This document shows, one piece after another, positions 19,531 to 51,454 of a stretch of DNA of 64,000 nt (its first letter is position 1; the number at the start of each line of letters is the position of its first letter). The translations under genes were made by a program, and so were the position numbers. A model generated the notes under the pieces. The model made no database searches and was not told the DNA's origin. It saw only the letters and a list, made by a program, of their open reading frames with translations. Source of the stretch: a virus (lineage: Duplodnaviria; Caudoviricetes); IMG/VR virus record IMGVR_UViG_3300035515_000417, positions 1 through 64,000 of that record; one strand, written 5' to 3'.

Positions 19531-20397
19531 ATGAAGAGAGTAGCATTATTAACTCTGTCTTGCTTATTGGTGTTTGGTAGTGTAAGTGTAGCTTATGCAT
19601 CATCTCTTGATGATATTATAGCACAATCTACAGATTCAACTGACAATAGCAGTGTATCGCAGGAAAGTGCTGAACCAGTACAAGAGCAGACACCAGCAGT
19701 AACAAATAGCCAGAGCACAGTGCAGTCAAACAGTGACTATGCAGAACAGTACATGAACGATTTGAAAAATGCCACTAAATTGGACACACCATCCGCAGCA
19801 GCAACTAAGGTAAATCAAGGTATAAAAACCTTTGCATCCTTTGTTGTTCAAGTAATAGCTTATGCTGTTACAGCCTTACTAGTTGTAAGGGTTTTAATAG
19901 ACCTTATGTATATATGTATACCATTTCTTAGGTCTAAATTAGCCAATGGTTATCAAGGAAATGCACAGGCTGGTGGCGGTGCACAAGGTGGTAACAGTGG
20001 ATTTGGCGGAGGCGGCTTCGGTGGAGGTGGCTTCGGCAATAGCGGCTTTGGCGGAGGCTACGGTGGTGGCTTCGGTGGAGGTGGATTTGGTAACAGTAGC
20101 TTTGGTGGAGGGGGCTTCGGTGGTGGCATGAACCAAGGTAACCAAGCTTCACCTGCTACAGGTAGAGTACAGTGGGTATCTGAAGCAGCATTAAATGCTG
20201 TGGCAGCAGGTGCTGTAGTTGACCAGAACAATAAGCCAATAAGTCCACTTAAAGCTTATGCAAAGGACATGGTTCCTACTCTAGTAATAACACCAATATT
20301 ACTAGTTCTTGCTATAACTGGTGTACTTACAGACCTTGGATTCTTAATTGGTAACGTTATAGCAAATGCAGTAAGTGGTATTTCAACAATGTTATAA
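19531..20397 (+). CDS. Pilin-like membrane protein, paralog 1, with Gly/Phe-rich loop
   Basis: Start moved to ATG 19531 (RBS GAGGAG); signal peptide, TM ending IDLMYICIP, GGGF repeats, C-terminal TMs. Confidence 0.7.
   Translation: MKRVALLTLSCLLVFGSVSVAYASSLDDIIAQSTDSTDNSSVSQESAEPVQEQTPAVTNSQSTVQSNSDYAEQYMNDLKNATKLDTPSAAATKVNQGIKTFASFVVQVIAYAVTALLVVRVLIDLMYICIPFLRSKLANGYQGNAQAGGGAQGGNSGFGGGGFGGGGFGNSGFGGGYGGGFGGGGFGNSSFGGGGFGGGMNQGNQASPATGRVQWVSEAALNAVAAGAVVDQNNKPISPLKAYAKDMVPTLVITPILLVLAITGVLTDLGFLIGNVIANAVSGISTML
19972..20127 (+). repeat. GC-rich GGGF/FG coding repeat
   Basis: Encodes GGGAQGGNSGFGGGGFGGGGFGNSGFGGGYGGGFGGGGFGNSSFGGGGFGGG. Confidence 0.85.
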
Positions 20398-20422
20398 TAG
20401 TGTGTGACATAGGAGAAATAAA

Positions 20423-20734
20423 GTGAGCAGGACAAGTGAAGTAATTAAGAATAAGAATAAGATTGAAAAGGCAAGAAAAGCTCGTCGTAAGAATGAAATG
20501 GTTGCATTGAAAAATAAATCAGCATTTAAAGCAAGACTGTACGATGAGTTGAAAAAGGTAGATATAATATTAAATGATAAGGACATAGATGCTGTGGTAG
20601 TGACAGTTCCAGAAAAGTCAATTAGCCAGTTTACCACTGCTATATATTCAGAGGATTTAGTAGGATATACAGTTGAACAGGTACCACAGCATCCAAATCA
20701 ATTCTACCTTAGAAGAAAGTATATATCTTTCTAG
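20423..20734 (+). CDS. Small basic hypothetical protein
   Basis: 103 aa, GTG start, RBS AGGAG. Confidence 0.75.
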   Translation: MSRTSEVIKNKNKIEKARKARRKNEMVALKNKSAFKARLYDELKKVDIILNDKDIDAVVVTVPEKSISQFTTAIYSEDLVGYTVEQVPQHPNQFYLRRKYISF

Positions 20735-20782
20735 TATTTAAGAACGGACATAGAAAAGATTTAAGAAGGGTGGAATTATAAA

Positions 20783-21196
20783 ATGTCAAGAATGAGTATT
20801 CAAGATAGATACGATGAAATATGTAAATTATCAGGTTTGTCTGAAGATGTAGTGCGTAGAGTGTTTAAGGCTACAAAACAGAGTATGGCAAAATCATTGA
20901 GACAAGGTGAGCCGAGCACTGTACCTGGTATAGTAACAATAACACCAGAAGTAAGACAAAAGTTAAGTATAGGTGGTCAAAGTTTAACAAGATATATACG
21001 TTTGAAAGCTAAAGCTTCATCTGCTTTAGAGTCTGAAATATCCAAGTTAGATAACTTTGAATCTGATAGTGATACATTGACAGAGGAAGAGTATGAGGCT
21101 GAGATACAGGCTAAGTTGTTTTTGAAAGACCCCGAACTTAATGCACCTGAGAAACCAAAAGGAATACGTGTGTCACAAATTAATGCATTATTATAA
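20783..21196 (+). CDS. HU/IHF-like DNA-binding protein with acidic C-terminal extension
   Basis: EICKLSGLSEDVVRRVFKA...LRQGEPSTVPGIVTI...YIRLKAKASSALESEI follows the HU fold pattern. Confidence 0.6.
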   Translation: MSRMSIQDRYDEICKLSGLSEDVVRRVFKATKQSMAKSLRQGEPSTVPGIVTITPEVRQKLSIGGQSLTRYIRLKAKASSALESEISKLDNFESDSDTLTEEEYEAEIQAKLFLKDPELNAPEKPKGIRVSQINALL

Positions 21197-21213
21197 AGTA
21201 AAAGGAGTCAGCT

Positions 21214-21834
21214 ATGACAGGACCAACTCATAGAAAGTTTTCCGTAGCCTTTACATTTATAGGTGCAATGCTGATTTACAAGTATAACATTCTTGATATA
21301 AGTTATTACTTAGTAGTTATGGTAATGCTTATGACTGCAAGACATGGTGCATTATTTCCAGACTTAGATCATTCATGGAAGAATGTAGGGAACAAAACTG
21401 TGGTGAATAAGATAGTAAATAGTCTTATACACTTAACTGGGGGAAAGCATAGAAGTTGGCAGACACACAGTATAGATATATGTATGTGGTTTACAATAAT
21501 ATCATTTATATTACCTGATATAACTTATAGGTATGATATAATATCTTATTTAAACTCACAAGTGCTAAAGTTAATAATGATAGGATTTTCCACTGGTTGG
21601 ATAAGTCATGAGTTTAGTGATATGCTAACATCTGGTGGTGTGAGGTTGTTCTTCTTTAATAATAAGATAAAGTTAAAATTAGTACCTAAGAGAATTAAGA
21701 TATTCAGAAAGGAATTAAGGTTTAACACAGGTAATGAATGGGAAGCTTTCTGTTATAAATGGACAAACAGAATAAATAAAGTGTTAGGTGTAATATGCAT
21801 AATATATCCATTTATGCATGAATTAATTAAATAG
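21214..21834 (+). CDS. Membrane-bound metal-dependent hydrolase (YdjM/DUF457-like)
   Basis: MTGPTH, GALFPDLDH, HRSWQTHS, SHEFSDMLTSGGV motifs with TM segments. Confidence 0.85.
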   Translation: MTGPTHRKFSVAFTFIGAMLIYKYNILDISYYLVVMVMLMTARHGALFPDLDHSWKNVGNKTVVNKIVNSLIHLTGGKHRSWQTHSIDICMWFTIISFILPDITYRYDIISYLNSQVLKLIMIGFSTGWISHEFSDMLTSGGVRLFFFNNKIKLKLVPKRIKIFRKELRFNTGNEWEAFCYKWTNRINKVLGVICIIYPFMHELIK

Positions 21835-21849
21835 AAAGGTGGAATAAAA

Positions 21850-22647
21850 ATGCAAGACAGTAGAAATAAAATAAGTGCAAGATTATTAGTGATACTTACA
21901 TTGATTATGACATTAGTAATGAGTATGACAGCTTTTGCAGATTACTCTAGTGCTAAAGATGCTGTAGCAGCTTATAAAAATACTGGTACTCTAAGTAGTT
22001 ATGTATTTACTACTAAACCAGCCGGAAGTAGTATAGATTCATGGAACGACACTAGTACAGGTATTACATACTATTGGGACACAGCTAATGAATCAGCTAT
22101 TATAAGCGCTGCGAACAGTCTGTCAGCTAAGTCAACAGCTACTTCAAATGACCAACAGAAGATTGAGGAATTTTCTAACATAACTAATGGATTTGGCTTA
22201 CAGGCAGATGTAAGTGGCGCAGGTGCTTTATTATCAGGATTCACAGGCGTAATAACTACATTACTTGGTATCTTGACAGTAGTAATTACAATAGGTATGA
22301 CAATATTTACAGGCTTTGACCTTTGCTATATTGCCTTTCCTACATTTAGAAATACTTGTGAGGAGGCAAAGCAGTCAGGTTCAGGATTCATGGCTAGTAA
22401 TAAAAAGACAAGTAGTGGTGAAACCAAGCTTAAGTTTATTTCAGATGAGGCTCAGTATGCTGTAAATGCAGCTCAGACTACAGAGAGTGGTAAGAATCCA
22501 TTTATCATTTACTTCAGTAAGAGAATAGTAGCTTACATGGTACTTGCAGTGTTACTGTTCATTTTCTTAACTGGACGTATTACAATATTTACAGACTTAG
22601 CTTTAAAGCTTGTATCTGGTGTATTGAATATTATACAGGGTGTATAA
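21850..22647 (+). CDS. Pilin-like membrane protein, paralog 2
   Basis: Signal peptide (AFA-D), TM ending FDLCYIAFP, FISDEAQYAV, C-terminal TM. Confidence 0.7.
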   Translation: MQDSRNKISARLLVILTLIMTLVMSMTAFADYSSAKDAVAAYKNTGTLSSYVFTTKPAGSSIDSWNDTSTGITYYWDTANESAIISAANSLSAKSTATSNDQQKIEEFSNITNGFGLQADVSGAGALLSGFTGVITTLLGILTVVITIGMTIFTGFDLCYIAFPTFRNTCEEAKQSGSGFMASNKKTSSGETKLKFISDEAQYAVNAAQTTESGKNPFIIYFSKRIVAYMVLAVLLFIFLTGRITIFTDLALKLVSGVLNIIQGV

Positions 22648-22681
22648 TGAGAGTAACTAGCAAAACTAAGGAGGTTAACAT

Positions 22682-23182
22682 ATGTTATTACTCACTAAAA
22701 CAAGTACTAGCATAGCTTCACTTGTAGAAGAATTGGAAAAGAGAATATATTCTAATGGTGATGTAAACTATTTGTTTATGATACAGAGTACAAATGTGAT
22801 ATATAGTATAGCCTCCTTAGTTCTTGGTATATTATCTTTACTAATAGTAATTATAGTACCTATAGTAATAGCCTTAGAACTTATGTATATATGTTTCCCA
22901 GCAGTGAGAGCAAAAGCTGATGAACTTATAATGAAAATAGAGGGCTCTGGACATAAAAATAACTTAGTCCAATTTACATTAAGAGATGCAGTAGAAGCTG
23001 TGGAAGAAGCTAATACACGAATGGTTGGTGAAAGATCAGCCTTATGGATTTATTTACAGATAAAGGTAAAAAGTGTATTGTTCCTAATGTTTATTGTGGC
23101 ACTGGTAGTAAGAGGAAGTGCCTCTATAATAGCTTTTATGGACGGACTTATTAGTAATATAATATATGCTATGTTTGGATAG
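22682..23182 (+). CDS. Pilin-like membrane protein, paralog 3
   Basis: TM ending LELMYICFP, FTLRDAVEAV, C-terminal TM; RBS AAGGAGG. Confidence 0.7.
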   Translation: MLLLTKTSTSIASLVEELEKRIYSNGDVNYLFMIQSTNVIYSIASLVLGILSLLIVIIVPIVIALELMYICFPAVRAKADELIMKIEGSGHKNNLVQFTLRDAVEAVEEANTRMVGERSALWIYLQIKVKSVLFLMFIVALVVRGSASIIAFMDGLISNIIYAMFG

Positions 23183-23190
23183 ACAAGGCG

Positions 23191-23235
23191 TAAGCTGGTA
23201 CACTTTATATAAAGAGGGACCAGCTTATGTTTTTG
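23191..23235 (+). terminator. Hairpin/terminator after the pilin-like genes
   Basis: TAAGCTGGT...ACCAGCTTA followed by TGTTTTT. Confidence 0.7.
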
Positions 23236-23288
23236 AAAGAAATGTAACAATATAAGAAATTAGATAACTAAGAAAGGAAAGAGTAGGC

Positions 23289-25862
23289 ATGAAGATATCA
23301 AGAAAGATAATAATATTAACAATAGCCACATTTGTTTGTCTAATGTCTACAGCCTGTGGTGAAACATTAAAAGGATATGTACAGCATGACCTAGGTAATC
23401 AGCTTAGTGAGAAAGTGGATGCTAATATTATGATAGTTGACCAATTAAAACAAGCCGGGTTCTTATCAGAAAATGAGGCAGCTAGTGTAACAGCCTCATT
23501 GAACACTCAGAAGGCTGACTTTGAAACTCAGATAAGAACAATAGAGGGCAGTGGAAAGATACCTGGAAACTTGACAGGTGCTATTTCAAGTTTCAGAATA
23601 GCAGATGGAAGTACACTACATTACCTTGGTAATACCGATTCTGTACAGACTGATGAGGGTTCCTTCTGGGATACATTTAATCCAAAGACTTCATCACATC
23701 AACCACTATCAGAAAAATTGAATTGCTTGATATTGACAAATTACTTGTGTTTGTCTAAAGGTGGTGTGGCAATATGGGGTGATACTCCAAAGAAAGGATT
23801 TGTAGAGGAGGATTCAGAGGATAACTGGTATACTAAGACATCTTCTGGTAACTATTGTCCAATAAATGAAAAGCAGTCTAAGATATGGCATGTAAAAGAT
23901 ACAGGTATAAATCCTATAGTGCTAGTGGCTGATGATATTGAGACATCTATAGAGAGTAAGTTTGATTATGAGGTATATGTTTTAAAGCCTGACATAGTCA
24001 CTGGTGACGATTCTGGTTCAATAGATATTATTATAACAGCATTGCAATCAGCTATAACAAAATCAGGTAACAATAAATCAAATACTGGTATGACAGTATC
24101 AAATACAGCTTTACTTGAGCAATATTTTCAAAAGGCAACCACTAAAGATGGTAAATCAATAAAATTAATTGATAAGGATGGTAGTGGAAACATACCAGAT
24201 GAATATAAGTTGGTAAAAGTAAGTAGTGCAAATGACCTTGATACAGGTGACACAACAGCTACACCTGGTAAGGATTTGATAGTAAAGCAGTATAATGTTC
24301 CAATGATGTCATTAAGGTTTAAAGAGTTTGACCAGACAGCTGTAGATAACTTAAATGCATTGATGGGTTTACAAGAGAATAAATATGTATTTTGTGAGGT
24401 AGCAGGTTCAAAAAGAGCTTACTTAATGGAATATCCAGTATCAGTATTATCTAGTATTGAACAAGTAGATGATAACAAGGTTAATGGTACACTTGCAAGT
24501 TCTGGTATAGGTGTGAACTTGTTTACTGGTAAGATAGTAAAGTATGATGTAGATTCTACTGGTGTTAAATGGCTCGCATCTGGAACGGCTATAGATAATT
24601 CAGTAGAGAATTACTTAAATGTAGATGCAGCTTCAAGTAATAATGAAACATCTAAGAGTTCATTTATACTGAAAGGAATGACAACTACCACAATAAGTTA
24701 CAACTTGTCATCTGGTGAAGCAAAGCAGAATATAACGACAGGTAGAATTGTATTAAGAGACTATCTGGAGGCTACCTATGCACCAGGTTTTATAGATAAT
24801 GAGCCTGTGGTCTCGTTTGGGCGAAAGATAAGAGTTAATTTCTCACAATGGGATGAATCGGTGTACGATAAGAATAATGCTTATACACAGTATAGTCCAT
24901 ATTGGGACAAAACACAAACTTTTGGGTACTATGTAGATAAATCGGGTGACCGAATAGAAACCTCACCAACACTAAAGATAACAGACCTAGCAGATATAAA
25001 TTATCTAATGACTGGTACAACTTCAAGTACATGGACAAAGAACAAGTTGTATAGTATAGTAGAGCCTGGTCAAAAGACATCTAAGACAGAAGCTACAGCA
25101 GAGGCTGGTGAGGTACACTCAGCAGACCAACTTGAAAAATATACAGTGGACAGTAAGAAATTACAGACTACACTTCCACTTCCAAGTAAGTATCTGGCTA
25201 AAGAAGATTTTGACAATGATACCACGTCAAAGCAGAGGTTTTATGTATTAGCTACCAAGTATAATATGTTTGACACTGGACTGTTTAGCGATTGGATTGA
25301 AAGTACATCAAGTACAGCTTCATTAGATTGGTGGGACAGTTACCTTGCAACTTACAATTATTTATATAGTCCTGGACATGAGGCTGTAAATAATTACTTG
25401 AAAACGAATTATGCATACGAGTTAAGTCAAAATGGTGTAGTTGTATTGGACCTTGAAACAGTAAGTAAGGTACAAGAGATATTTGATGATAAGACAGCTC
25501 ATGACAGGGTATCGAATATAAGGACATTCTTTATGATACTTGGTTGGGTATTAATAATATATAGTATGATATTAATGCTCTGTTGGGGTGTAGATGCCAA
25601 CATGGATATAGGTGTAAAGTTGTTAGAGAAAGCAACCTTTGGGCATTGGGTGGCTATTAAGTATGAGGATGATGTGCCATACATGAATACAAATGGTAGG
25701 ACATATCTGACAGGTTCAAAGATGTTTATAAGATGCTTAATAATTATATCCTTAGGATTAATAATTATATATGTGAACATCTTCACTGTAGTATTAAGGC
25801 TCATAGAATTGTTTGGTTCGTTCGCATCAAAGATAGAGAAAATAATTCTAGGTACTAGATAG
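23289..25862 (+). CDS. Large lipoprotein with C-terminal TM helices (putative transfer-apparatus component)
   Basis: Lipobox MSTA-C23; ~715-aa extracellular region; two or more C-terminal hydrophobic segments. Confidence 0.75.
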   Translation: MKISRKIIILTIATFVCLMSTACGETLKGYVQHDLGNQLSEKVDANIMIVDQLKQAGFLSENEAASVTASLNTQKADFETQIRTIEGSGKIPGNLTGAISSFRIADGSTLHYLGNTDSVQTDEGSFWDTFNPKTSSHQPLSEKLNCLILTNYLCLSKGGVAIWGDTPKKGFVEEDSEDNWYTKTSSGNYCPINEKQSKIWHVKDTGINPIVLVADDIETSIESKFDYEVYVLKPDIVTGDDSGSIDIIITALQSAITKSGNNKSNTGMTVSNTALLEQYFQKATTKDGKSIKLIDKDGSGNIPDEYKLVKVSSANDLDTGDTTATPGKDLIVKQYNVPMMSLRFKEFDQTAVDNLNALMGLQENKYVFCEVAGSKRAYLMEYPVSVLSSIEQVDDNKVNGTLASSGIGVNLFTGKIVKYDVDSTGVKWLASGTAIDNSVENYLNVDAASSNNETSKSSFILKGMTTTTISYNLSSGEAKQNITTGRIVLRDYLEATYAPGFIDNEPVVSFGRKIRVNFSQWDESVYDKNNAYTQYSPYWDKTQTFGYYVDKSGDRIETSPTLKITDLADINYLMTGTTSSTWTKNKLYSIVEPGQKTSKTEATAEAGEVHSADQLEKYTVDSKKLQTTLPLPSKYLAKEDFDNDTTSKQRFYVLATKYNMFDTGLFSDWIESTSSTASLDWWDSYLATYNYLYSPGHEAVNNYLKTNYAYELSQNGVVVLDLETVSKVQEIFDDKTAHDRVSNIRTFFMILGWVLIIYSMILMLCWGVDANMDIGVKLLEKATFGHWVAIKYEDDVPYMNTNGRTYLTGSKMFIRCLIIISLGLIIIYVNIFTVVLRLIELFGSFASKIEKIILGTR

Positions 25863-25896
25863 ACATTAAGGAACATTGAGGAAAGGAAAAATAAAT

Positions 25897-28800
25897 ATGA
25901 AACAAAGGATTGTTACAATATTAAAAAAGTTAATAATAGCTTTAATGTGTATAACGACCTTATCCAGTGCCATAGTGTCTGTTATACCTATAGCCAAGGC
26001 AGATAGTTTATCTGTATTGGGTACAAATAAGGCTTTGGGTTCTCCAATTTTAAATGAAAATTTCACAGTAGATAACTGGAACAAATGGGAAATAGTTTGT
26101 TGGGGAGTATTCTTAAGTAATTTCTGTCAGCCATTGATAGATACTTATGAATCAGCCTTTAAGTCTGGAACTACAGGTTCATCTGGTGCAGGATATAAGG
26201 CATTATGCTTTGGTAGTGGTAGTGATGCATCAAATAATGAGACTATAGAAGCCTTTTGTGATTATGCTATACAGCAACAGAAGTCAGCTTCATTAAGACA
26301 AGTTTATGTTACCTACTCACATGTAAGATACAGTGGTTTGACCAGTATAGCAGGTCAAGGTAATTTTTTAATAACAGATGAACAAGACCCTAACGTTGAT
26401 GCAAAGGTGGCAAGGCAGGCTACAATATCAGATTTCTTTTTTAAGGATGGTAGTGATGTTGATACGACAAATGCTAAAGTAAAGGGTTCAAGTGTATTGA
26501 GTACAAATGTATTAGTGCAGAGTTGGTATACACATACAGTATCAATAGATGCATATGTACCAACTTTCTGGATTGTAAATACAAATAAGCAGTACGTAAA
26601 GATTTTAGACTTTATGGACACCTGGGATATACAGGTATTTACAGCTATCATAAATGCTGTAAGAGAGACATATGAGTCTGACTTTACAACAGCTTTTGAC
26701 AACTATGTAAATTCAAATGCATTGGTATCTTTGGACGTATTTGGAAATTTAGTAATGCCAGACAGAAAGATGTTCTTCCCAGCATCAGCTAATCAGAATA
26801 TAACAGAGGATAAATCTATAAATCTGGTAAATAGTTGGGTGTTTAACAGTTATAATTCGACATACTCAAATGATAACTTAATTGAGGGTGTAAAACAGGA
26901 GGCATTAAAAGCCATATTTATACCATATAGTATTTTATCTGGTCTTCCTGCTTTTACAGAGAGTAGTTTAGGAAATATAGGATTACTGTATTATGATACA
27001 GACTCAATAGTATTAAGTGATAATAACGTAACAATAACTCCTGGTGAAGCAGTTAAAGATTTATTTGACTGTGATATAAACCAAGGAACTACTCAGAAAT
27101 ATCCATTAAAGTTTGAGATAGCAGGTTGTGATACTAAGTTTTCTCGTGGATTTTGGAAGACAGTTACATTTAAGTCTAGGGATGACTTAGTTCAATCTAG
27201 TTTGGTGGCATCTGTATTGAGCAATAGAAATGATGGTACATCAGCACTGCCAGCTATGTTGAATTACATTGAGGCTACTGATGGTACACATGTAGATTTG
27301 TTTGACTCAGACCCAGTAATAATTCCAGTACAGCTGTTATCAAAGACTCAGGACGGTAAAGCTTTAAGGTATTTTTATAACTATTGTTATAAGGCATATA
27401 CAGGTAAAATAACTAACCAAAGTGAGGGTGGAACATATTATACTAGTATGTTAAAGAGTGGCATGAGTATTCTATCCGCAACCACATTTAAAGAATTTAA
27501 GTCAGAGGCAAAGAATTTATGGGCAGGATTTAAGTCAGCTTATCCACAGTTCAAAAAAGTGGATTTCAGAGATTCAATGATACTTGACATAGGTGATAAT
27601 GAGTCAATAAATCCAGACTCATTTAGATTAGTAAAAGTATACCCTATATCGGATGTGTTGAGGTCAGTGTCTTCTGTATTAGGATGTGTAGACGGTACAG
27701 AGTTTAGTGTGTACTCTACGATGATATACATGACTTATCTTGATTGGTACGGTGTAGCAAATGTGACTACATTAACTTCTGGAACAGAAGGTACAAGTAA
27801 TTTTGATAAAGACATATATGATTCATCTATTGACATGCTAAGTTTAGACCCTGGCGAATTAACAGATTTGAAGTCAGAGGAGGATATGGAAACAGAAGTA
27901 TTAAATATGAGTTACTTGATGCTATCCCCTGACTCAGGACGTACATATAGAAAGACATTGATATATAATGGAATATCAGACTTTTTATATGAGCAGTACA
28001 ATAGAATGGTTTATGGTGGTGCTAGTGCAGATTATTCTGGCTCGGCTTCAAAGAGTAACTCAGGATTCTTTGCTATAGAGACATTTGATGAAAATCCACT
28101 AACAAGTTTCTTCTTAGAGAACTATGTAGATATAGCTGTGTGGATAATTGCAATATGTGTAGTAGCTTCCATAATAATAGGATTACTAAAGAAAAGAAAG
28201 CTAAGTTGGTTTGTATTCTCAATTATAATTGTGGTTAACTGTGTATTATTAGTCCCATCATCAGGTGAATTAGTACCATACACCACATCGCACATAGTTA
28301 ATAAGATGTTTAGTTCCAAAATGACTGCTTGGAGCATGTCAGAGGGTATAGCCAATGCACAGCTTGAGAGTAATGCTCAATCCTCTACTGGTACATTTAC
28401 AGGCATGACAACAGAAGAGGCTGAACTTGCTACAAAACTGATAAAACAGTTGAACGTAGTATATACAGATAGGTCACTGATGCTTAAGCAGGATATAAGT
28501 CAGAAATTGACACAGGAATTAGGTGGTGTATACTCAGAAATTCAGTCTTTGCAGTCTGCTAGGTGGATATTACCAATGGTAATGGAGCAGTTCACAAATC
28601 AAGAGGATACTTATGGAAGTCTATATGTTAAGCTGAGTAATGTTTGGGATGACGCTAGTAATCTGTATTGGTACTTTAACCCAGATGATGCTACAAATGT
28701 AACAAAGAAGACAGCAACTTCAAGTCAGTTTGTACCTGGTTCTGGTTCAGCTGTTACTAAGGTAGATACCATAGAGAGCTATGATTCATTGACAAGTTAC

Positions 28801-38940: not shown

Positions 38941-39096
38941 ATGTATATTTTATTATTTATGTTCATAGCAATTGTGGTTTATATAAAGACATTTAAGGAA
39001 AATTTTAATGAGGAAAATATACAGAAAATAGTACCAGAGTTGTTTGCTGCTGGCGTAATAATTGTAGTATTACTAATATTAAGTGCAATATCATAG
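38941..39096 (+). CDS. Small 2-TM protein (51 aa, not in ORF track)
   Basis: MYILLFMFIAIVVYIKTFKENFNEENIQKIVPELFAAGVIIVVLLILSAIS; upstream GGTGAGG. Confidence 0.65.
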   Translation: MYILLFMFIAIVVYIKTFKENFNEENIQKIVPELFAAGVIIVVLLILSAIS

Positions 39097-43099: not shown

Positions 43100-44483
43100 T
43101 TTAGAGGATATGCAGATAGGATGTGTACATGTAGACAGTTATGATACAAAGAGTTTGTGGAATTGTACATGTAAATGTGGAAAGAAAATAAAAGTAAAGA
43201 CATTTAATTTAAAAGAGGCAATCAGACTAAATAAGAATTATGCATGTGAAGAATGTAGTGCAGAGTTAAGAAGAAATGATATTACAGGTAAACAGATAAA
43301 TGACTGGAAAATAATAGAATACGTAGGTGATGGATTTTACAAATGTCAGTGTAAGTGTGGTAAGGTATACAATATAAAAGGTAAGACAATCAAGAGTGGT
43401 AAATCAAAGTCATGTAGGGATTGTGGTTGTAAGAAAATGATACAGACCAGACTTGATAGATATGATGATATAGCTACCAATGTAAAGGAAAGGCGTACAG
43501 AGGAACAAGTAATAGCCTGTAGTAGTTCAGAGGATATGAGAGAGTTTATACTAAATAACTTTAATCATAAACCAAAAGCATTAGAAATATCAAGATTGTT
43601 AGGAATTTCAGAGTGTATGGCATTAAGAAAAATACACAAATTTGGTTTAGATGGATATATAGAGATAGATACTGGTTCAGTAATAGAAAGTGATGTGGTC
43701 AATTATATAAAAAGTATATACAATGGTAATATAATTGAGAGAGATAGAAAAGTATTGAGTGGTTCAGAGTTAGATATTTATATACCTGACAAAAATTTAG
43801 CTATAGAAGTAAATGGTGATTATTGGCATAGTAATATTTTTAAAAATACATATTATCACCAAATAAAATCACTGAAATGTTTAGAGGAACACATTCATCT
43901 GATACATATATTTGAGTATGAGTGGAAAAATAAGAATAAGAGGGATAAATTAGAAAGTTATATAGAGACAAAGCTGAGTGATAGTAATACATTAATAGAT
44001 ATAAATGACACACTAATAAAAGAAATAAACACTGATGAATTAAATAACTTTAGAAATAAATACGACATACATGAGTATCAAATACCAGATACAAGTATGA
44101 ATATAGGATGCTATTACAGTAATGAGTTAATAGGAATAATGACATTTAACAAAATAGATTCAACTAATAGGACCAGGTATAAAATACTTGCAAATTGTTG
44201 GAAACCACATATAGAAGTAAAGGCTGGACAGAGTAAATTATTTGAATACTTAACAAGAGAATATAGACCATCCTCAATAGTAGTTTATGTGGACTTAGCA
44301 AAGTTTACTGGAAACTCATATGTAGATGAATTAGGATTTAGAGAGATAGAGATAACAGAGCCAAATTACATATGGCTGAATAATCAGACATATGAAATAA
44401 TAGAGGATAATGAGATAAATAATGGATACTTAAAAATTTATAACTCAGGCAATCTAAAGTTAGAGTGGAAAGATAAAAAGTAG
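43083..44483 (+). CDS. Hef-like homing endonuclease, paralog 2
   Basis: ELDIYIPDKNLAIEVNGDYWHS; IHLIHIFEYEW; ELIGIMTF; SKLF...SIVVYVD; PNYIW; YLKIYNSG. Confidence 0.8.
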   Translation: MKPKFDLEDMQIGCVHVDSYDTKSLWNCTCKCGKKIKVKTFNLKEAIRLNKNYACEECSAELRRNDITGKQINDWKIIEYVGDGFYKCQCKCGKVYNIKGKTIKSGKSKSCRDCGCKKMIQTRLDRYDDIATNVKERRTEEQVIACSSSEDMREFILNNFNHKPKALEISRLLGISECMALRKIHKFGLDGYIEIDTGSVIESDVVNYIKSIYNGNIIERDRKVLSGSELDIYIPDKNLAIEVNGDYWHSNIFKNTYYHQIKSLKCLEEHIHLIHIFEYEWKNKNKRDKLESYIETKLSDSNTLIDINDTLIKEINTDELNNFRNKYDIHEYQIPDTSMNIGCYYSNELIGIMTFNKIDSTNRTRYKILANCWKPHIEVKAGQSKLFEYLTREYRPSSIVVYVDLAKFTGNSYVDELGFREIEITEPNYIWLNNQTYEIIEDNEINNGYLKIYNSGNLKLEWKDKK

Positions 44484-44508
44484 TCTAGTAGAGAAAGGAG
44501 TAAGGGTA

Positions 44509-46395
44509 ATGGATTTTTCAAGAGGCATAGCAAATATGACAGACATAAGTCTTGGTGGTGTAGAAATAGCCACAGATTTTTTATCAAATCCTGATTTATA
44601 TGAGCCAGAACTCACTGAAGTAAAGGCAGTCATATCAAAGAAAGATCCTAAACTTATAAGAAAAGGACCAAAGCCTATAAAGCCAAAAAAGACAAGGGAA
44701 AGTATAATGAGCAAGTTCAGTTTGGTACCACATGAAAAAGTAACAGTACAGACTGATGAATATGTCGTAAATGATTTGGACATAGAGCAAGTAAATTTAG
44801 GGGTGGATGATGATTTTAATTTTGATGACTTTGATGATTTAATAGAGAAAGAAAAAGAAATTGAACCAGCAAAGGTAAAAGAGTTAAGTTCAGAGGAGGA
44901 TACAAGGAACTCAATAATGCTTGCTATAATGCAGGCTCAACAGAACAGCACTTCAGAGGAAGAGGAAACACCAGAGGAGGAAGAAAATCAGCAGCTCAGT
45001 AATGAGATAGACAATATATTTACAGATAATGTCTTTGAGGATGAAGATGAGCAATATGACGAACCAGATGAAACACCAGAGGAGGAAGATGAGTCAGAAG
45101 AAAATATATTTGATGACATATTAGACGAAGCAGATAAGATAGAGGATAAGAAACCAGAAACAATCCAAAAAGAGCCAGTGCAGGAAGTAAAAGAGGAAAC
45201 TAAATCAGACGAGGATGACTTTGGAATAGACATGAGTAGCTTATTTGAGGATGAGGAAGACCCTGATGATTATGATGAGGACCAAGATGATTATGATGAA
45301 GACCAAGATGATTATGATGAAGACCCAGATATAGAAGAAAATATCAAACCAGAACAAAAACCTTTACCAGAGATCAAAAAGGTGGAGCCAGTAAAACAGG
45401 AAAGAACAGTTGAGGATGAACTGGATAACATATTAGGTGATGACGAAGACCCTGATGAAGAAGAGGATGAACTGGAAAATGGTTTAGATAGTTTGTTTGA
45501 TGATGACTCTGACGATGACGAGTATGATGATGACAATGGGTCAATAAGCATACCACCACAATCAAAAGTTGAGACAGTAAAAGTTGAAAAGACAGTTCCG
45601 ACAGTAAATACTCAACCAGTTAAAACTCCAGTCACAGACGAGGAAGAGTCAGACAATGAGGATGATTTCAATAGTTTGTTTGATAGCGAGGATATGCAAG
45701 GATTATTTGATGATGGTGACCCTGATGAAGAAGGACTAGAAGATGAGATAGAAATACCAACAGAAGTTCCTAAATATACACCACCTCAAAAGGTAAATAC
45801 ACCAACTAGTTCACAATCAACACCAGTTACACAGCCACCAGTTCAACAGACACCACAGTCACAGATTGTACAACCAGTAACAGATATACTACAAGAGAAA
45901 GATAAAGAAATAGCAGAGTATAAAGCACAACAGGCAGTAATGCAAAAACAAATGCTAGATATGCAGAAAATGATGCTTGAGATGCAGAAACAAATGCTTA
46001 GTAATAAACAAGAGGGTTCTGTAAAAGATGCAGTTGATTTAGAGGGTAAATATAAAGAAAATATTAATAGACCTAAAAAAGATGTTAATATTGAAACTAG
46101 TGAGAAAATTGCTAGAGCAAAGAAATTAAAAGAAGAATCTGTTAAAAAAGTAGCAAAAGCAGTTGCAGTTAAAGAGGAGGCAAAACCAAAGATAGATAAC
46201 ATAGCAAGATATAATGAGATGCCAGTTGAAAAATTATATGCAGAGGTAAGAAGCACCATGACAAAGTTAGGTGTAAATAAGAAACTTGTGGATATAAATA
46301 CATTAAATGAAAAATTCGGCGAGGCAAATATAAGGAAACTCATTCAAAAAAGTTATCTTATCAAGATTGGTAAAAATATAACTGCTGCAAAATAG
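44509..46395 (+). CDS. Acidic disordered protein with Gln-rich coiled coil and putative C-terminal winged helix
   Basis: Long D/E tract with DxLF motifs, PQ-rich segment, QMLxMQ coil, compact C-terminal helical domain. Confidence 0.75.
   Translation: MDFSRGIANMTDISLGGVEIATDFLSNPDLYEPELTEVKAVISKKDPKLIRKGPKPIKPKKTRESIMSKFSLVPHEKVTVQTDEYVVNDLDIEQVNLGVDDDFNFDDFDDLIEKEKEIEPAKVKELSSEEDTRNSIMLAIMQAQQNSTSEEEETPEEEENQQLSNEIDNIFTDNVFEDEDEQYDEPDETPEEEDESEENIFDDILDEADKIEDKKPETIQKEPVQEVKEETKSDEDDFGIDMSSLFEDEEDPDDYDEDQDDYDEDQDDYDEDPDIEENIKPEQKPLPEIKKVEPVKQERTVEDELDNILGDDEDPDEEEDELENGLDSLFDDDSDDDEYDDDNGSISIPPQSKVETVKVEKTVPTVNTQPVKTPVTDEEESDNEDDFNSLFDSEDMQGLFDDGDPDEEGLEDEIEIPTEVPKYTPPQKVNTPTSSQSTPVTQPPVQQTPQSQIVQPVTDILQEKDKEIAEYKAQQAVMQKQMLDMQKMMLEMQKQMLSNKQEGSVKDAVDLEGKYKENINRPKKDVNIETSEKIARAKKLKEESVKKVAKAVAVKEEAKPKIDNIARYNEMPVEKLYAEVRSTMTKLGVNKKLVDINTLNEKFGEANIRKLIQKSYLIKIGKNITAAK
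45265..45327 (+). repeat. 3 x 21-bp tandem repeat (DDYDEDQ)
   Basis: gatgattatgatgaRgaccMa at 45265, 45286 and 45307. Confidence 0.9.
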
Positions 46396-46425
46396 AGAAT
46401 AGGAAAGGAAGGTACAGTTAGTACA

Positions 46426-48699
46426 ATGAAAAAGAAAAAGGCACTAAAACTTATAGCATTGGTAACTGCAATGAGTTTATTAGGTACTGGATGTGGTTCA
46501 GTAGTTGGTGAAGATGTAGCTTCATACCAATTGGACTCACCACTTACAAGACAAGAGGTAATTGATTATTATGCAAAGGCATTAGACTATGATGCAGTAA
46601 TATCAAAGAATGTAACAGTACATGAAACTGAATATGTCACTCAAGATATAGAGGGAGAAAAGGCAGAAAGACTTAAATCATTGACAGAACAATGTGAAGC
46701 AATATTAGGTCAAAAGACTTATGAACTTACAGAGGATACAAAGAAGCTGGTATCCGAGGATACATTTAACTATATTAAGGTTACACTTGATAATGATACT
46801 TTGAGCAATGGTAAAATTCAGAGTATCACAGGTGCATTAGGATATTACTTTGTAGATGTAACATATGATGTAAGCCCAAGTGTGATAGGTCAGTTTAATA
46901 GCTTAGCAAGTTTCTCAGGAATAAATGGTATATACTATAGTCATTATGATGGTTCATATTCATTAGATGATTCATACGTTGAGTATATAGTAGAAAAGCT
47001 TAATGATTATTTTAATGAGAATAAGATATTAAAGAATGCTGTTTATAATGATGAGTCAAAGTTGTTTGAGATACAAGAGGGTGTCAAGCCAGATGTCAAG
47101 ACTAAAACAGTTGAAAATGTGTCCAACTTAACATCGGATGGTGATAACTATGAGGATGATTGGTTCACAGATGATTATACAACAACTACATCAGATGATA
47201 CTGAATACTTTGAGGGTGATGATGAGGTACTTAATCTTCCTGGTGATAGCAATGAAGATACAGAGGTGTCCACATTAGAGAATACAGAGCAGACAGATGA
47301 TACATTTGGTGGAAATGATTCAGCATCGGACTTAGATTTCTTAGTAGATAATGAGTCAGGTGATACAGATGATACCACTTCAACAACTTCATCAGATGCA
47401 AGTACAAGCAGTGAGAGTGGTTATAAATCATTAAAGAACACAGATTCCAACACAGATGCAATAGACCCAAGCAGACAGGTACAGTTTGATGCAGCTTTAG
47501 TAAATAAGGTAGCTGGTAGTTCAGTAAGACAGAGAGCTACAATACCAGATTTAGCCACAATATACTCAATACCAGAGCCACAGGGTGAAATAAGTGGATA
47601 CGGTATAGCAAATAGTGGTGGTGATGGAGTAAAGTACTTTGGATTGGACAGAGCAAATATGCAGGGTACAGCCACTTTGAGATATGTGTTTAAAGATGAT
47701 GTAAATGGAACAGGTGATATACTTGGTACTAACATTTACATGACAGAGGAAAACATTACAAATGGTATTACATCTTCAGATAATACAGTATTGTTACCAG
47801 AGTTCTTAAAGACGGAACTTGAGAAAGTGGTAGAAAGAGCAGACAGAGTAAATGCCAACTGTGACTTAGCGGGTATGTTAAGTGGTAGTATGTATCAGGA
47901 TTTAGGCGTTGGTGTCTTAAGAAGTTTTAAAGACCAGTCAACTGGTGTAAATAAATACATGTCAACTATAAGACAGATAATTGAAAGAAACACAACCTAT
48001 AATGTTTATTTACTTGAACTTGAGACAACTACGATAGAGGGACCAAGAGATGTTGATTGCTATGGTACTTACAAAGATAAAGGATACATGGTAATTCAGC
48101 AGCAAGGAAATGAATTTGTTATCATGGATTATATAAGAATAAGCAGGTCAATGATTAGTGAGCCACCTATTAATCCAGATTCTACAATTCAAAAGAGACT
48201 AGTAGCACTTAACTTAGCAGGTGAAATTCCAGAGGATAGTAAGGAAGAAATAACAAGCTTGATGAGTGACCTTTATACAGCTGGTACAAATAGATTGTTA
48301 AGAGGTCCAAAGGATATAACAGTTAAGGGTGAAACAATAACACTTGAGAAAGGTTTGTATGACTGTTTCCAAGATGACTCAGACATATTATCAACTACAG
48401 AACTTGAATATACAATGAGTAAGTTAACAAATGCATTAATTAAGCATGGTGCAGATGTAAGTTCAGTATATAGCGGTATAATATCTACATGGAATGGTGG
48501 ATATGATAATCAGGCAGAGTTCACTACGGAAGAGTTGATAACATATAATGGTAGAGATGATGCCTATTACATGGAAGTTTACTACTTAGTATCTAAGTTA
48601 AATGATAAGTGGGTAATTGATGAAAGAACAATCCTTGACGAGGAAGAAATCACAAATGCAGTAGATATACAGACTATCAAGGAAAGAGTTGGACAGTAA
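46426..48699 (+). CDS. Large lipoprotein, possibly with NTF2-like (TcpC/VirB8-like) domains
   Basis: Lipobox LGTG-C23; helix plus beta-strand modules ending in WVIDER / FVIMDY-like strands; acidic S/T/D linker. Fold call is weak inference. Confidence 0.65.
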   Translation: MKKKKALKLIALVTAMSLLGTGCGSVVGEDVASYQLDSPLTRQEVIDYYAKALDYDAVISKNVTVHETEYVTQDIEGEKAERLKSLTEQCEAILGQKTYELTEDTKKLVSEDTFNYIKVTLDNDTLSNGKIQSITGALGYYFVDVTYDVSPSVIGQFNSLASFSGINGIYYSHYDGSYSLDDSYVEYIVEKLNDYFNENKILKNAVYNDESKLFEIQEGVKPDVKTKTVENVSNLTSDGDNYEDDWFTDDYTTTTSDDTEYFEGDDEVLNLPGDSNEDTEVSTLENTEQTDDTFGGNDSASDLDFLVDNESGDTDDTTSTTSSDASTSSESGYKSLKNTDSNTDAIDPSRQVQFDAALVNKVAGSSVRQRATIPDLATIYSIPEPQGEISGYGIANSGGDGVKYFGLDRANMQGTATLRYVFKDDVNGTGDILGTNIYMTEENITNGITSSDNTVLLPEFLKTELEKVVERADRVNANCDLAGMLSGSMYQDLGVGVLRSFKDQSTGVNKYMSTIRQIIERNTTYNVYLLELETTTIEGPRDVDCYGTYKDKGYMVIQQQGNEFVIMDYIRISRSMISEPPINPDSTIQKRLVALNLAGEIPEDSKEEITSLMSDLYTAGTNRLLRGPKDITVKGETITLEKGLYDCFQDDSDILSTTELEYTMSKLTNALIKHGADVSSVYSGIISTWNGGYDNQAEFTTEELITYNGRDDAYYMEVYYLVSKLNDKWVIDERTILDEEEITNAVDIQTIKERVGQ

Positions 48700-48767
48700 A
48701 TCAGAGTGAAAGCTCAAGAAAAATTAAAATAGCTTACAAGAGCCTCCTTAGTTCAATGTTATAGTGG

Positions 48768-48797
48768 AAGGGCTTCCAGTAAAATGGAAGTCCTTTT
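48768..48797 (+). terminator. Rho-independent terminator
   Basis: AAGGGCTTCCA-6 nt-TGGAAGTCCTT-TT. Confidence 0.8.
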
Positions 48798-48821
48798 ACA
48801 TTTTAAGGATACTAAGAAAAT

Positions 48822-48846
48822 AGCATAAATATATAAGAGGTATATT
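48822..48846 (+). promoter_or_regulatory. AGCA-N15-TATATT promoter-like motif upstream of the SNF2 helicase
   Basis: AGCA 48822-48825, GG-TATATT 48841-48846. Confidence 0.5.
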
Positions 48847-48922
48847 TTTATTTATTTAATTAAATTTTGGTTAAAAGTATGTGTAACAGTGAGAAATTTA
48901 AGTAAGAAAGGAAGAAAAATAA

Positions 48923-50554
48923 ATGGCAGTGAGAAACCCTACAATGTGGCATGATATGTACATTGGACAAATGAGTGAGCCACAGGCAAAACTTATAATG
49001 CAGACAAGAGAATCCAAGGTGATACCAAACTTAAAGAAAATGATATTTAATTTTCCATATGAGCTAATAACAAAGAGCTTAGAGGAGGAAATAAGTATCA
49101 GAGAGATAATAAAGAGAGACAATATAGATTATACACAGTACATTGGAGAATTAAGAGATTATCAGACAGTAGGAACAGCTTTCATGTATTTAAGTCCAAG
49201 AAGCATAATAGCAGATGGTGTAGGATTGGGAAAAACAGCAGAAACAGCTGCATTGATAAACTATCTTAAGCAAAAGAATGAGATAACACGATTTTTAATG
49301 GCTGTTGAAACCAGTGCAATTGCCCAGACAGTGGCTGAAATAACTAGGTTTACTGGTTTAAGGGTGGTTGCAATGCCATCAGAGGCACCTAAGATTAAGA
49401 AAGTCATTGAGAAAACAGACTGGACAAAGGTGGATGGAATAGTAATAAAGCATAGTACATTAAGAAGTGACCCGTTCAGTAAATGGTTGGCTTTAAACTT
49501 AGACGAGCAGGGAAGGTGTAAGATATTTAATACATTTTTCTTGGATGAGAGTTCAGTAATTAAAAATCAGAATACAAAGATGTTTGATTATACAAAGAAT
49601 ATATGTCATATAGTAGAAAGAGTACATCTGATGAATGCAACTGCATTTGAAACTTCCATAATTGACATATATAACCAATGTGAAATGATGAACGAAGTGT
49701 TGATGCCAAAGAAATGGCGTATAGAACAAGCTTATTGTACATATCAAAATGTAAGTTACTGGACGAAAGATAAAACTACAGGTAAGGCAAAGATAAATTT
49801 CAAGAGGGATAGGTCAGGATACAAGAACCAGAAAGCCTTCAAGGATAGTTTGCAGTTGGTTTACTTTGGAAGATGCAAGAAAGACATAGGAATGGATATA
49901 CCACATGTGTATAAAGTATATGAGGTTGAACCAACAAATGAAATGTCATTGGCTTTGTCAAAAGGTTACAGATATAATGAATTATTAAATTGTCCATCAT
50001 TAATAGATGACCTTAACATATCAATGGATAGACAGAGTGTACCAAAGCTTAACAGACTGTGTGAACTGGTAGAGAATGAATTTGCAGATGAAAGCATAAT
50101 GGTTTATTGTTTCCACATAGAAGCACAGAAAGCCATAGCAGCTGAAATGGAAAAGATAGGAAGGAAACCAGTCATTCTAAATGGTAGTTGTACAGATGAT
50201 GAGAGATTTGAGGCACAGAGAGGATTTAATGAGGGAAAATATGACATAATAATAACCAACATTAAAAAGTCCTTAAATCTCTATGGAGGAAATGTATGTA
50301 TCTTCTATTCAATGGAGACTAACATAGCAAAAATGGAACAGATAAGGGGAAGGATAGATAGAAACGTGGATAATTCAATAAAGACTTTTGTAATGTTGTT
50401 ATACAAAGGTACAGATGAATATAACTTCTTCTCTACTGTAGTATGTCAGAGAGCAAAAGATGCCAGAGACCTTACAATAGATGCAGAAACAGCAGCAGAT
50501 TTCTTTAAACAAGCCTTAGAGGCAGATGAGCTTCAGGAATTAAAAGAAGTTTAG
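48923..50554 (+). CDS. SNF2-family helicase/translocase
   Basis: LRDYQ (Q motif), IADGVGLGKT, FLDESS, PKLNRL, LNL..., EQIRGRIDR. Confidence 0.88.
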   Translation: MAVRNPTMWHDMYIGQMSEPQAKLIMQTRESKVIPNLKKMIFNFPYELITKSLEEEISIREIIKRDNIDYTQYIGELRDYQTVGTAFMYLSPRSIIADGVGLGKTAETAALINYLKQKNEITRFLMAVETSAIAQTVAEITRFTGLRVVAMPSEAPKIKKVIEKTDWTKVDGIVIKHSTLRSDPFSKWLALNLDEQGRCKIFNTFFLDESSVIKNQNTKMFDYTKNICHIVERVHLMNATAFETSIIDIYNQCEMMNEVLMPKKWRIEQAYCTYQNVSYWTKDKTTGKAKINFKRDRSGYKNQKAFKDSLQLVYFGRCKKDIGMDIPHVYKVYEVEPTNEMSLALSKGYRYNELLNCPSLIDDLNISMDRQSVPKLNRLCELVENEFADESIMVYCFHIEAQKAIAAEMEKIGRKPVILNGSCTDDERFEAQRGFNEGKYDIIITNIKKSLNLYGGNVCIFYSMETNIAKMEQIRGRIDRNVDNSIKTFVMLLYKGTDEYNFFSTVVCQRAKDARDLTIDAETAADFFKQALEADELQELKEV

Positions 50555-50665
50555 ATTTAAAGAATAGATACAAACTTAAAATAATAATTTCTATTTTTTA
50601 GGCATTAGATTAATAGGGAATTAAATTTTTAAGAAAATAAAAAGAAAGAAAGGAAATTAAAGGAC

Positions 50666-51454
50666 ATGAAAAGAAAAGTAATAAGCTTAATAACAATATT
50701 GAGTATCAGTGCTAGTTTATTAGTTGGTTGTGGAAGTGCTACTAATGCGGACGGAACCACAGACATTAGTAAATTAAGTAAATCAGCTTTATTAGAGAAA
50801 TACAATGAGTTAGCAAATAATTACAATGGATTAAGTACACAGTACACTGAAATGTATAATATGTATCAGGCATTGACTACAGAGGAACAGCCAAGTTCAG
50901 CAATATCAGTGGTTGGTGATGGAACAGGTAGATACACCTTTAACTCAGTAGATGCTAAGATGATATTTCCATCAAGTTTCCAATACCCGTCAGCAGAGAC
51001 AATACAGTCAAATGGAAGTATTAACATAGTGCAGAATGTGCAGGTATCACCTGGAAGTAATTGGATATTTAAAATGAATGGAACTACATTGGAACTTGAA
51101 CATACCAGTGGTATATCAGGTACAATTAAAGCTTCAGGTGTTACAACTCAATATGATAAGACACAGTTGAAAGATGAGGTTTTGTCACAGTGGTTTGTAA
51201 ATGTGCCAGATGCAAAACCAGTATATAAGGATATATTTATTGACCAGACAATGTTTGGTGTACAGGCTACGACACCAATTATGATTGATAGTGAAAATGC
51301 ATTTTTAAGGTGTGGAATGCTAGCTTATGGTGATTATGCAATAACTTATGTGTTTGTTTACAGAGGTGAACAAGATGTAACAAAAGATGAGAGCATAACG
51401 AATGTATTAAATACAATAAAGATTATGGGGGCAGAGTTCCAAGTAGAGGACTAG
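50666..51454 (+). CDS. Lipoprotein with short coiled coil
   Basis: Lipobox LLVG-C22; RBS GAAAGGA/AAGGA. Confidence 0.8.
   Translation: MKRKVISLITILSISASLLVGCGSATNADGTTDISKLSKSALLEKYNELANNYNGLSTQYTEMYNMYQALTTEEQPSSAISVVGDGTGRYTFNSVDAKMIFPSSFQYPSAETIQSNGSINIVQNVQVSPGSNWIFKMNGTTLELEHTSGISGTIKASGVTTQYDKTQLKDEVLSQWFVNVPDAKPVYKDIFIDQTMFGVQATTPIMIDSENAFLRCGMLAYGDYAITYVFVYRGEQDVTKDESITNVLNTIKIMGAEFQVED

Follow-up and report, generated by a model that had tools for sequence, protein, structure and literature searches.

A probable conjugation locus of the pXO16 tip lineage on a giant plasmid-like element of gut Bacillota

Main finding

The window analysed here is the first 64 kb of IMG/VR record IMGVR_UViG_3300035515_000417 (G000), a contig of 87,960 bp that represents a partial element. 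Between 19.5 and 51.5 kb it carries a co-oriented block of ~32 kb with VirB4-fold, FtsK-type and MinD/ParA-like genes and genes for membrane proteins. We consider it very probable that this cluster serves a giant plasmid-like element of gut Bacillota as its conjugation locus, encoding mating pore and DNA pump, and that it shares its lineage with the tip locus of the Bacillus thuringiensis plasmid pXO16. The host of the element is probably a member of the Clostridia (Lachnospiraceae).

An earlier reading made from the letters and their translations (the sequence-only reading) had proposed a DNA-transfer machine of the type IV secretion system (T4SS) kind, pairing VirB4 with an FtsK coupling ATPase as in pCW3, for a very large replicon, and had recognised it as no described system. 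Fold and profile matches bear out the pairing, and the very large replicon also stands; relatives lie on elements of 250–720 kb. The cluster does indeed fit no standard family model, but the claim of an undescribed system fails: the pXO16 tip locus, defined by experiment, is the nearest relative and agrees with the cluster in gene order and in eleven proteins.

Match to the pXO16 tip locus

The 350-kb plasmid of B. thuringiensis sv. israelensis deposited as NC_018516.1 (pBTHD789-1) is pXO16 (PMC6199540). Work on its conjugation goes back to 1987, and the limits of the tip (transfer of israelensis plasmid) locus were set in 2018 (PMC9673590, PMC6199540). The tip locus is a conjugation locus of 25 kb with 16 coding sequences, delimited by bioinformatics and experiment (PMC9673590); its products include two ATPases and TipB, a cell-wall hydrolase, and the literature describes it as a novel T4SS that transfers single-stranded DNA and whose relaxase and oriT are not known (PMC9673590, PMC6199540).

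A tblastn search of plasmids with the VirB4-like protein of the window matched ~350-kb plasmids of B. thuringiensis sv. israelensis (31.6% identity, 85% coverage, E 2e-70) as well as ~143-kb plasmids of the Bacillus subtilis group; phmmer against the pXO16 protein gives E 3.6e-89. Eleven window proteins have significant and collinear matches in pXO16 at 22–32% identity, covering the DnaX-like, YdjM, giant, 456-aa, coiled-coil, VirB4, FtsK and SNF2 proteins and the paralog set. The common gene order is DnaX-like, paralog, small genes, YdjM, two paralogs, giant membrane protein, 445/456-aa protein, mid-sized protein, coiled-coil protein, VirB4-like, tiny transmembrane proteins, FtsK-like, SNF2/DEAD helicase, GyrB, GyrA and DnaB, with the DnaX-like gene as the upstream border of the common block and the three small membrane paralogs of pXO16 in positions equivalent to those of the window. 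Both replicons are giant and low in GC, carry these genes on one strand and have no recognisable relaxase.

Collinearity with the complete pXO16 runs on beyond the locus through GyrB, GyrA, DnaB and two further genes, which makes the contig in its entirety a distant pXO16-type replicon rather than merely the carrier of a shared cassette. By tblastn, matches in pXO16 are found for only 12 of the 71 open reading frames (ORFs) of the contig, and the replicon backbone genes (17872–19296 and 54744–63734) stand in pXO16 order.

VirB4-type ATPase

Searched as a single sequence, the VirB4-like protein finds no match in the PDB. When 59 diverse members are combined into a profile, the best PDB match is a Gram-positive VirB4, the C-domain from Thermoanaerobacter (4ag5), at E 1e-17, and HerA is matched at 0.005. 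An AlphaFold2 (AF2) model of the protein (pLDDT 85) matches full-length TrwK/VirB4 of R388 over ~630 columns at E 3e-17, with HerA behind at 1e-10; its TM-score to 4ag5 is 0.71, which again ranks above HerA. Curated models are matched weakly among the 59 members (DUF87 in 46, AAA_10 in 23, P-loop_TraG in 12), across all of which the Walker A motif (AETGGGKS type) and the acidic and arginine residues are invariant. With phmmer, only 285 clusters (50% identity) are reached among 1.84 billion cluster representatives, which marks the family as small and isolated.

As far as fold and profile show, this clade would be a conjugative-type VirB4 rather than HerA, and the comparison places it apart from non-conjugative HerA, the grouping that would have spoken against the sequence-only reading. 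A HerA-type non-conjugative translocase (HerA-NurA, DndH or defence HerA) was considered and rejected: the VirB4 N-domain is present, VirB4 outscores HerA in both profile and fold, and no neighbour is NurA-like.

A partner protein for VirB4

The 456-aa protein, whose true start is probably at 31113, has homologs in pXO16 (445 aa; Table 1), in a B. subtilis plasmid (2e-9) and in a distant metagenomic relative, locus L037 (1.5e-15). In its AF2 model (pLDDT 60 overall, 70–88 in the core) a transmembrane hairpin precedes an alpha/beta domain. For this domain the top structural matches (VIA-align) are all residues 16–220 of TrwK/VirB4, at Z 7.5–8.6 and rmsd 4.3–5.2 with 155–164 residues aligned; this is a moderate match, the next unrelated structure reaching Z 6.8 with 83 residues aligned. 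The likeness to the VirB4 N-domain is structural only, because hhalign between the 456-aa and VirB4 families gives no sequence-profile signal.

Complex prediction for VirB4 with the 456-aa protein gave an ipSAE of 0.73, as against 0.00 for the best of three controls; this passes a mark that is reached by 58 of 80 solved complexes and by 2 of 110 mismatched pairs. Contact agreement between runs is at least 87%, the partner has pLDDT of at least 80, and the predicted interface is a strand pairing between both N-domain-like folds. We propose that the 456-aa protein may be a membrane anchor or partner that docks on the VirB4 ATPase.

MinD-like, coiled-coil and FtsK-type proteins

The C-terminus of the 842-aa protein matches AAA_31/ParA/CbiA in Pfam (E ~1e-6), and its best NCBIfam matches are far below cut-off. 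Its Walker A motif, GCGGCGTST, contains no lysine, and alignment shows this form conserved in four elements; lacking both P-loop lysines, the protein cannot be a canonical ParA. The likeness to CpaE/TadZ of Tad pili that the sequence-only reading saw here is one of analogy: no TadA/CpaF ATPase, TadB/C platform, Flp pilin or prepilin peptidase was found in the family scan, which covered 45 ORFs of the window with a length of 100 aa or more.

To judge from sequence, the MinD-like scaffold is a core part of the wider family, in three lineages other than pXO16, because homologs sit at the equivalent place in a B. subtilis plasmid (hhalign 91%) and in L037 (95%; VirB4 26% identical). Its domains gave no hhalign signal against the 306-aa and 412-aa proteins of pXO16, nor did phmmer against the 306-aa protein; pXO16 would either be without a MinD-like protein or have one whose sequence is no longer recognisable. 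The 479-aa coiled-coil protein shows weak SMC-like coiled-coil matches (NCBIfam) and 34–49% identity in relatives. That it is itself ParA-like was considered and dropped, hhalign giving no support from sequence.

The FtsK-like protein consists of an acidic, FG-rich disordered N-terminus, two transmembrane segments and one motor domain with intact Walker A (GKPRSGKS) and Walker B (LVIDE) motifs. Residues 1–160 (39119–39600) make up the disordered head, rich in Gly, Phe, Ser and Asn, with repeated FG/GF dipeptides before the transmembrane segments. By its order of domains the architecture is of the TcpA/SpoIIIE type, not the EssC type, and the protein is presumed to be a coupling protein or DNA pump.

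Distribution and host

Relatives of the VirB4-like protein number in the hundreds, and so do those of the 456-aa protein (50–85% identity, long intact ORFs). These lie on metagenome contigs of recurrent sizes (~335–342 kb, 460–494 kb and 520–630 kb; the largest 720 kb), often the largest scaffold of the assembly. Cassette order is kept in all loci read, and its core, made up of the genes for the giant, 456-aa-type, MinD-like, coiled-coil and VirB4 proteins, persists in lineages with VirB4 identity as low as 26%; two distant VirB4 representatives are on contigs too short for synteny. The family of giant gut elements is apparently large and unpublished, and we found no literature that links pXO16 with metagenomic giant elements.

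Species-representative genomes with relatives are a Lachnospiraceae metagenome-assembled genome (MAG) from water-deer caecum with two different copies, a Clostridia bacterium and Bacillus glycinifermentans, and one relative protein is named Lachnospiraceae in NCBI; binning is weak evidence of host. The MAG Lachnospiraceae RGIG8543 (L028, L029) has two VirB4-like copies, 75% and 61% identical to that of the window, from two elements in one host or from co-binning. In the ~340-kb lineage (L033, the 342-kb VALL22-1 scaffold_2), extra genes of 632, 582 and 700 aa are placed in two intervals, one separating MinD-like from coiled-coil and the other VirB4 from FtsK, and the FtsK-like protein is shorter (662 aa); the cassette therefore tolerates insertions.

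Membrane proteins, lipoproteins and accessory genes

Pairwise BLASTP among the three small membrane paralogs gives E 1e-5, 1e-4 and 5e-4, weak but consistent, and all three share a (D/E)LxYIxFP motif after a transmembrane segment. The 1676-aa protein is 35–47% identical in relatives L004, L005 and L007, and its hydrophobic segments lie at similar relative positions to those of the pXO16 1834-aa protein; it has no family match in Pfam and no match in a single-sequence PDB search. By position and topology it is presumed to be a channel and surface component in the role of VirB6.

For the 857-aa lipoprotein no match was found in Pfam, PHROGs, NCBIfam, PDB or ESM Atlas, and phmmer detected no pXO16 homolog. 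The 757-aa lipoprotein is 42–51% identical in relatives and has no PDB match, either as a single sequence or as a four-sequence profile. A low-confidence ESM Atlas model of it produced weak NTF2/SnoaL rows, and its C-terminal half is possibly NTF2-like, an unproven assignment that would correspond to the VirB8/TcpC role. Only short stretches of the 628-aa acidic protein are conserved in relatives.

The 51-aa ORF is called as a gene in L006, and ORFs of 51–57 aa occupy the equivalent site in L004, L005 and L007; its product is a possible VirB3-like subunit. The matching interval of pXO16 encodes transmembrane proteins of 92, 72 and 52 aa. Candidates for a VirB3-like role are this two-transmembrane protein (38941–39096) and the transmembrane hairpin of the 456-aa protein.

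An HNH/zinc-ribbon homing-endonuclease-like gene stands beside FtsK in every gut relative read and is doubled in the window. Its positions in L004 (14640–16622), L005 (12279–14414) and L007 (15011–16696) are either after FtsK or between VirB4 and FtsK, and phmmer detected no homolog of the two window genes in pXO16. They are probably selfish insertions; the constant association with a system lacking a known relaxase nevertheless makes the endonuclease a candidate nickase. Searches for a relaxase with two models (PF03432 and PF13814) gave no match in the partial contig, a 250-kb relative (G001) or pXO16. No cell-wall hydrolase was found among the cluster ORFs, either as a Pfam hydrolase domain or by phmmer with the pXO16 NlpC/P60 protein and a B. 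subtilis M23 peptidase; a very divergent hydrolase might still lie within the 857-, 757- or 1676-aa proteins.

Gene layout

GC content of the window is ~0.33–0.34, and its GC and AT skews are strongly positive. All long ORFs are on the + strand, and those of the cluster are uninterrupted (Table 1). Few genes at 19.5–51.5 kb are recognised by Pfam, PHROGs and NCBIfam, the P-loop matches being weak, and no standard family model of a T4SS component in Pfam or NCBIfam fitted the cluster ORFs. The flanks encode DnaX-like, GyrB, GyrA and DnaB-like proteins (Pfam).

Much of the inventory in the sequence-only reading was recovered. All long ORFs from 17.8 to 54 kb share one strand, in agreement with its ~32 kb of co-oriented genes; its three ATPase-like genes have DUF87/VirB4, FtsK_SpoIIIE and AAA_31/ParA/CbiA matches; pairwise BLASTP and the common motif confirm its three paralogous small membrane proteins; its 1669-aa polytopic protein has ~5 strongly hydrophobic segments (1676 aa from 25876); its three lipoproteins have lipoboxes at 23289, 46426 and 50666; and composition agrees with its acidic disordered proteins (44509–46395, and the acidic MinD-like linker and FtsK N-terminus). 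Its PrgI/VirB3-like gene was not found as such, no family model matching any. Also within the interval, though absent from its list, are genes for an SNF2 helicase, a YdjM-family protein and a weakly HU-like protein, and two genes resembling HNH homing endonucleases.

Promoter and terminator scans returned no more sites than in shuffled sequence and so define no operon borders. A hairpin at 19372–19419 (20 pairs, then a T-run) directly 3′ of the DnaX-like gene is a likely terminator; it overlaps the upstream ATG of the next ORF, so that 19531 is favoured as the real start of paralog 1. The 137-aa HU-like protein is, as a lead, a possible DNA-bending accessory factor, and pXO16 has a 157-aa gene at the equivalent position. 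The 262-aa lipoprotein that ends at 51454 has no pXO16 homolog by phmmer, and the loci of relatives stop before its position; it is an unproven candidate member of the system.

Table 1. Genes of the locus and its upstream border, with the evidence for each
Feature	Coordinates	Strand	Evidence
DnaX-like AAA+ clamp-loader subunit	17872..19296	+	Pfam DNA_pol3_delta2 E 5.5e-30; pXO16 AAA ATPase E 7.5e-57
Small membrane paralog 1	19531..20397	+	Signal peptide, transmembrane segment, (D/E)LxYIxFP, Gly-rich loop, C-terminal transmembrane segment; BLASTP to paralogs 2 and 3
103-aa basic protein	20423..20734	+	No family match; 92-aa pXO16 gene at equivalent position
137-aa protein, weak HU/IHF-like N-terminus	20783..21196	+	Pfam Bac_DNA_binding E 0.0066, below curated cut-off
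YdjM-family membrane protein (metal-dependent hydrolase family)	21214..21834	+	Pfam YdjM E 2.4e-13; pXO16 'metal-dependent hydrolase' E 6e-11, equivalent position
Small membrane paralog 2	21850..22647	+	phmmer to three pXO16 paralogs 9e-10, 9.5e-9, 4e-6; BLASTP to paralog 3 E 1e-5
Small membrane paralog 3	22682..23182	+	BLASTP to paralogs 1 and 2; pXO16 phmmer comparison
857-aa lipoprotein, two C-terminal transmembrane segments	23289..25862	+	Lipobox, hydropathy
1676-aa membrane protein (1669 aa from ATG 25897)	25876..30906	+	phmmer E 3e-29 to pXO16 1834-aa protein
456-aa protein: transmembrane hairpin, VirB4-N-domain-like fold, disordered tail	31113..32483	+	pXO16 445-aa homolog 1.6e-19; AF2 model
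842-aa protein: N-terminal alpha/beta, ~400-aa acidic disordered linker, C-terminal MinD/ParA fold	32517..35045	+	Pfam, NCBIfam
479-aa coiled-coil protein	35136..36575	+	phmmer E 9e-8 to pXO16 412-aa protein
VirB4-type ATPase	36592..38826	+	DUF87 E 5e-8; VirB4 by profile and fold
51-aa two-transmembrane protein between VirB4 and FtsK	38941..39096	+	Translation; conserved in relatives
FtsK/SpoIIIE-type ATPase	39119..41464	+	Pfam FtsK_SpoIIIE E 4e-16; pXO16 FtsK E 8e-44
Two overlapping HNH homing-endonuclease-like genes, 540 and 466 aa (ORFs at 41477 and 43083)	41477..44483	+	PHROG 3339/559/374 E 1e-50 to 1e-21
628-aa highly acidic protein, 28% D+E	44509..46395	+	Composition
757-aa lipoprotein	46426..48699	+	Lipobox; kept in relatives
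SNF2-family helicase	48923..50554	+	Pfam SNF2-rel_dom and Helicase_C; phmmer E 6e-67 to pXO16; present in L037 too
262-aa lipoprotein	50666..51454	+	Lipobox

Proposed mechanism and alternatives

The VirB4-type ATPase, whose fold is shown, would power assembly and transport. It may be held at the membrane by the 456-aa protein, through the hairpin and the predicted contact of its VirB4-N-domain-like fold. The 1676-aa protein, the small membrane paralogs and the lipoproteins would form the envelope-spanning part. Coupling and pumping of DNA would fall to the membrane-anchored, single-domain FtsK-type ATPase, in the manner of TcpA in pCW3. The machine could be positioned or gated by two scaffolds that are non-catalytic or cycle slowly, the coiled-coil protein and the lysine-less MinD-like protein, and the SNF2 helicase and HU-like protein may process DNA in lieu of the missing relaxosome.

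Several points weigh against reading the cluster as a conjugation locus. Transfer has been demonstrated for pXO16 alone, to which identity is low (22–32%), and the host of this element is uncultured; IMG/VR classes the contig as a provirus. Position and topology are the only grounds for assigning VirB6 and VirB8 roles. There is no peptidoglycan hydrolase to be found here, whereas pXO16 has a weak NlpC/P60 domain and two other lineages an M23 peptidase, and no relaxase or oriT (pXO16 has none known either). A VirB4–VirB4 dimer structure has been solved (7o43), with the N-domain contact in R388, and the passing score of the VirB4/456-aa complex may mirror that contact instead of being an independent prediction.

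Other explanations fare worse. A membrane machine might have another task, either protein secretion of the type VII secretion system (T7SS) kind through the FtsK-type ATPase or segregation of a giant replicon by FtsK with the MinD/ParA-like protein. EssC/EccC are the best NCBIfam and PDB sequence matches of the FtsK-like protein, and a MinD/ParA fold does lie within the operon. However, there is one motor domain where EssC has three, there are no FHA domains, the degenerate MinD-like P-loop excludes a canonical ParA, the partner ATPase has the VirB4 fold including its N-domain, and the homologous pXO16 locus was delimited by a transfer phenotype; we judge such a task very unlikely.

That the element is a huge phage or phage-plasmid, its cluster serving virion DNA packaging or delivery or some other phage process, appears very unlikely to us. 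The contig and its 250-kb relative are IMG/VR virus records, co-oriented genes, homing endonucleases and an own replisome are phage-like traits, and pXO16 itself is said to look phage-like; yet pXO16 moves by cell contact and gave no plaques (PMC6199540). The VirB4-like protein has no tblastn match in 50,697 phage records, and the few Pfam models applied (Phage_capsid, Phage_portal, TerL_ATPase) find no match in the contig, the 250-kb relative or pXO16. Least probable of all is a transfer locus that has lost its function and is decaying, with homing endonucleases as invaders (two genes beside FtsK), with no hydrolase or relaxase detected and a degenerate MinD P-loop, since all ORFs are long and unbroken, catalytic motifs are invariant in the 59 diverse VirB4 homologs, the lysine-less P-loop is itself conserved in four elements, and the cassette is kept on hundreds of contigs.

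Going beyond the assignment to conjugation, we raise tentatively, and with more doubt than belief, that pXO16-type machines are a separate and ancient class of Gram-positive mating apparatus, defined by a membrane-anchored VirB4-N-domain paralog that docks on VirB4, by a MinD-like scaffold lacking the P-loop lysines and by a pump of FtsK type whose disordered tail is FG-rich, and moving replicons of 250–720 kb among gut Clostridia without a canonical relaxase.

Implications

pXO16 is among the most efficient conjugative plasmids of Gram-positive bacteria, and can also transfer 'non-mobilisable' plasmids as well as pieces of chromosome as long as 791 kb. Its apparatus has so far been treated as nearly unique, and is now seen to be common to a family of 250–720 kb elements of animal and human gut, a hint that gut Clostridia may exchange very large and mostly unannotated replicons by a pXO16-type route. 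The cassette on hundreds of giant gut elements makes up a comparative data set that sorts core from accessory parts. Two candidate core parts are pointed out that are new with respect to the pXO16 reviews consulted: the MinD-like pseudo-ATPase as a scaffold, and the 456-aa VirB4-N-domain-like protein predicted to dock on VirB4.

Comparison with known systems

Against the shared order, pXO16 and the window differ in several parts. In place of the 842-aa MinD-like pseudo-ATPase, pXO16 has an unrelated-looking 306-aa protein. The 857- and 757-aa lipoproteins, the 628-aa acidic protein and the two homing endonucleases of the window have no detectable pXO16 match; conversely, a 710-aa protein with a weak NlpC/P60 domain (after the giant gene), two 200-aa proteins and SpoVG of pXO16 were not found in the window. 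From the NlpC/P60 match and the gene count we infer that TipA is the 1834-aa protein and TipB the 710-aa protein.

The ~143-kb plasmids of Bacillus subtilis/velezensis (e.g. NZ_CP032858.1) and L037 share with the window the 456-aa-type, MinD-like and VirB4-like proteins and a 500–590-aa protein. The plasmids also carry an FtsK-like gene (1127 aa), and L037 the giant protein and the SNF2 helicase; in L037, the 10 kb read on the downstream side of VirB4 contain no FtsK. Both differ from the window in having an M23 peptidase after VirB4, and their VirB4 identity to it is 25–27%.

pCW3 (Tcp), ICEBs1 (Con) and pCF10 (Prg) likewise combine a VirB4-fold ATPase with a membrane-anchored FtsK-type coupling protein (TcpF/TcpA), a large polytopic protein and lipoprotein and surface components, and have no outer-membrane core. 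Unlike these, the window matches no family model of those systems, has components about twice as large and shows no detected relaxase or hydrolase; it adds the MinD-like pseudo-ATPase, the VirB4-N-domain paralog, the triple set of membrane paralogs and the SNF2 helicase.

Inocles are giant extrachromosomal elements of oral Streptococcus (245–395 kb, GC ~32%, ~95% of genes of unknown function) with their own gyrase and Pol III genes, VirB4 and VirD4 being reported in all; their marker gene InoC (~454 aa) has a Replic_Relax domain, PF13814 (PMC12340149). Compared by description only, they resemble the window element in size, GC, replisome genes and reported VirB4/VirD4. The InoC marker domain has no match in G000 (88 kb, partial) or G001, and Inocles are rare in faeces, whereas the relatives of the window element come from gut-type samples and are binned with Lachnospiraceae.

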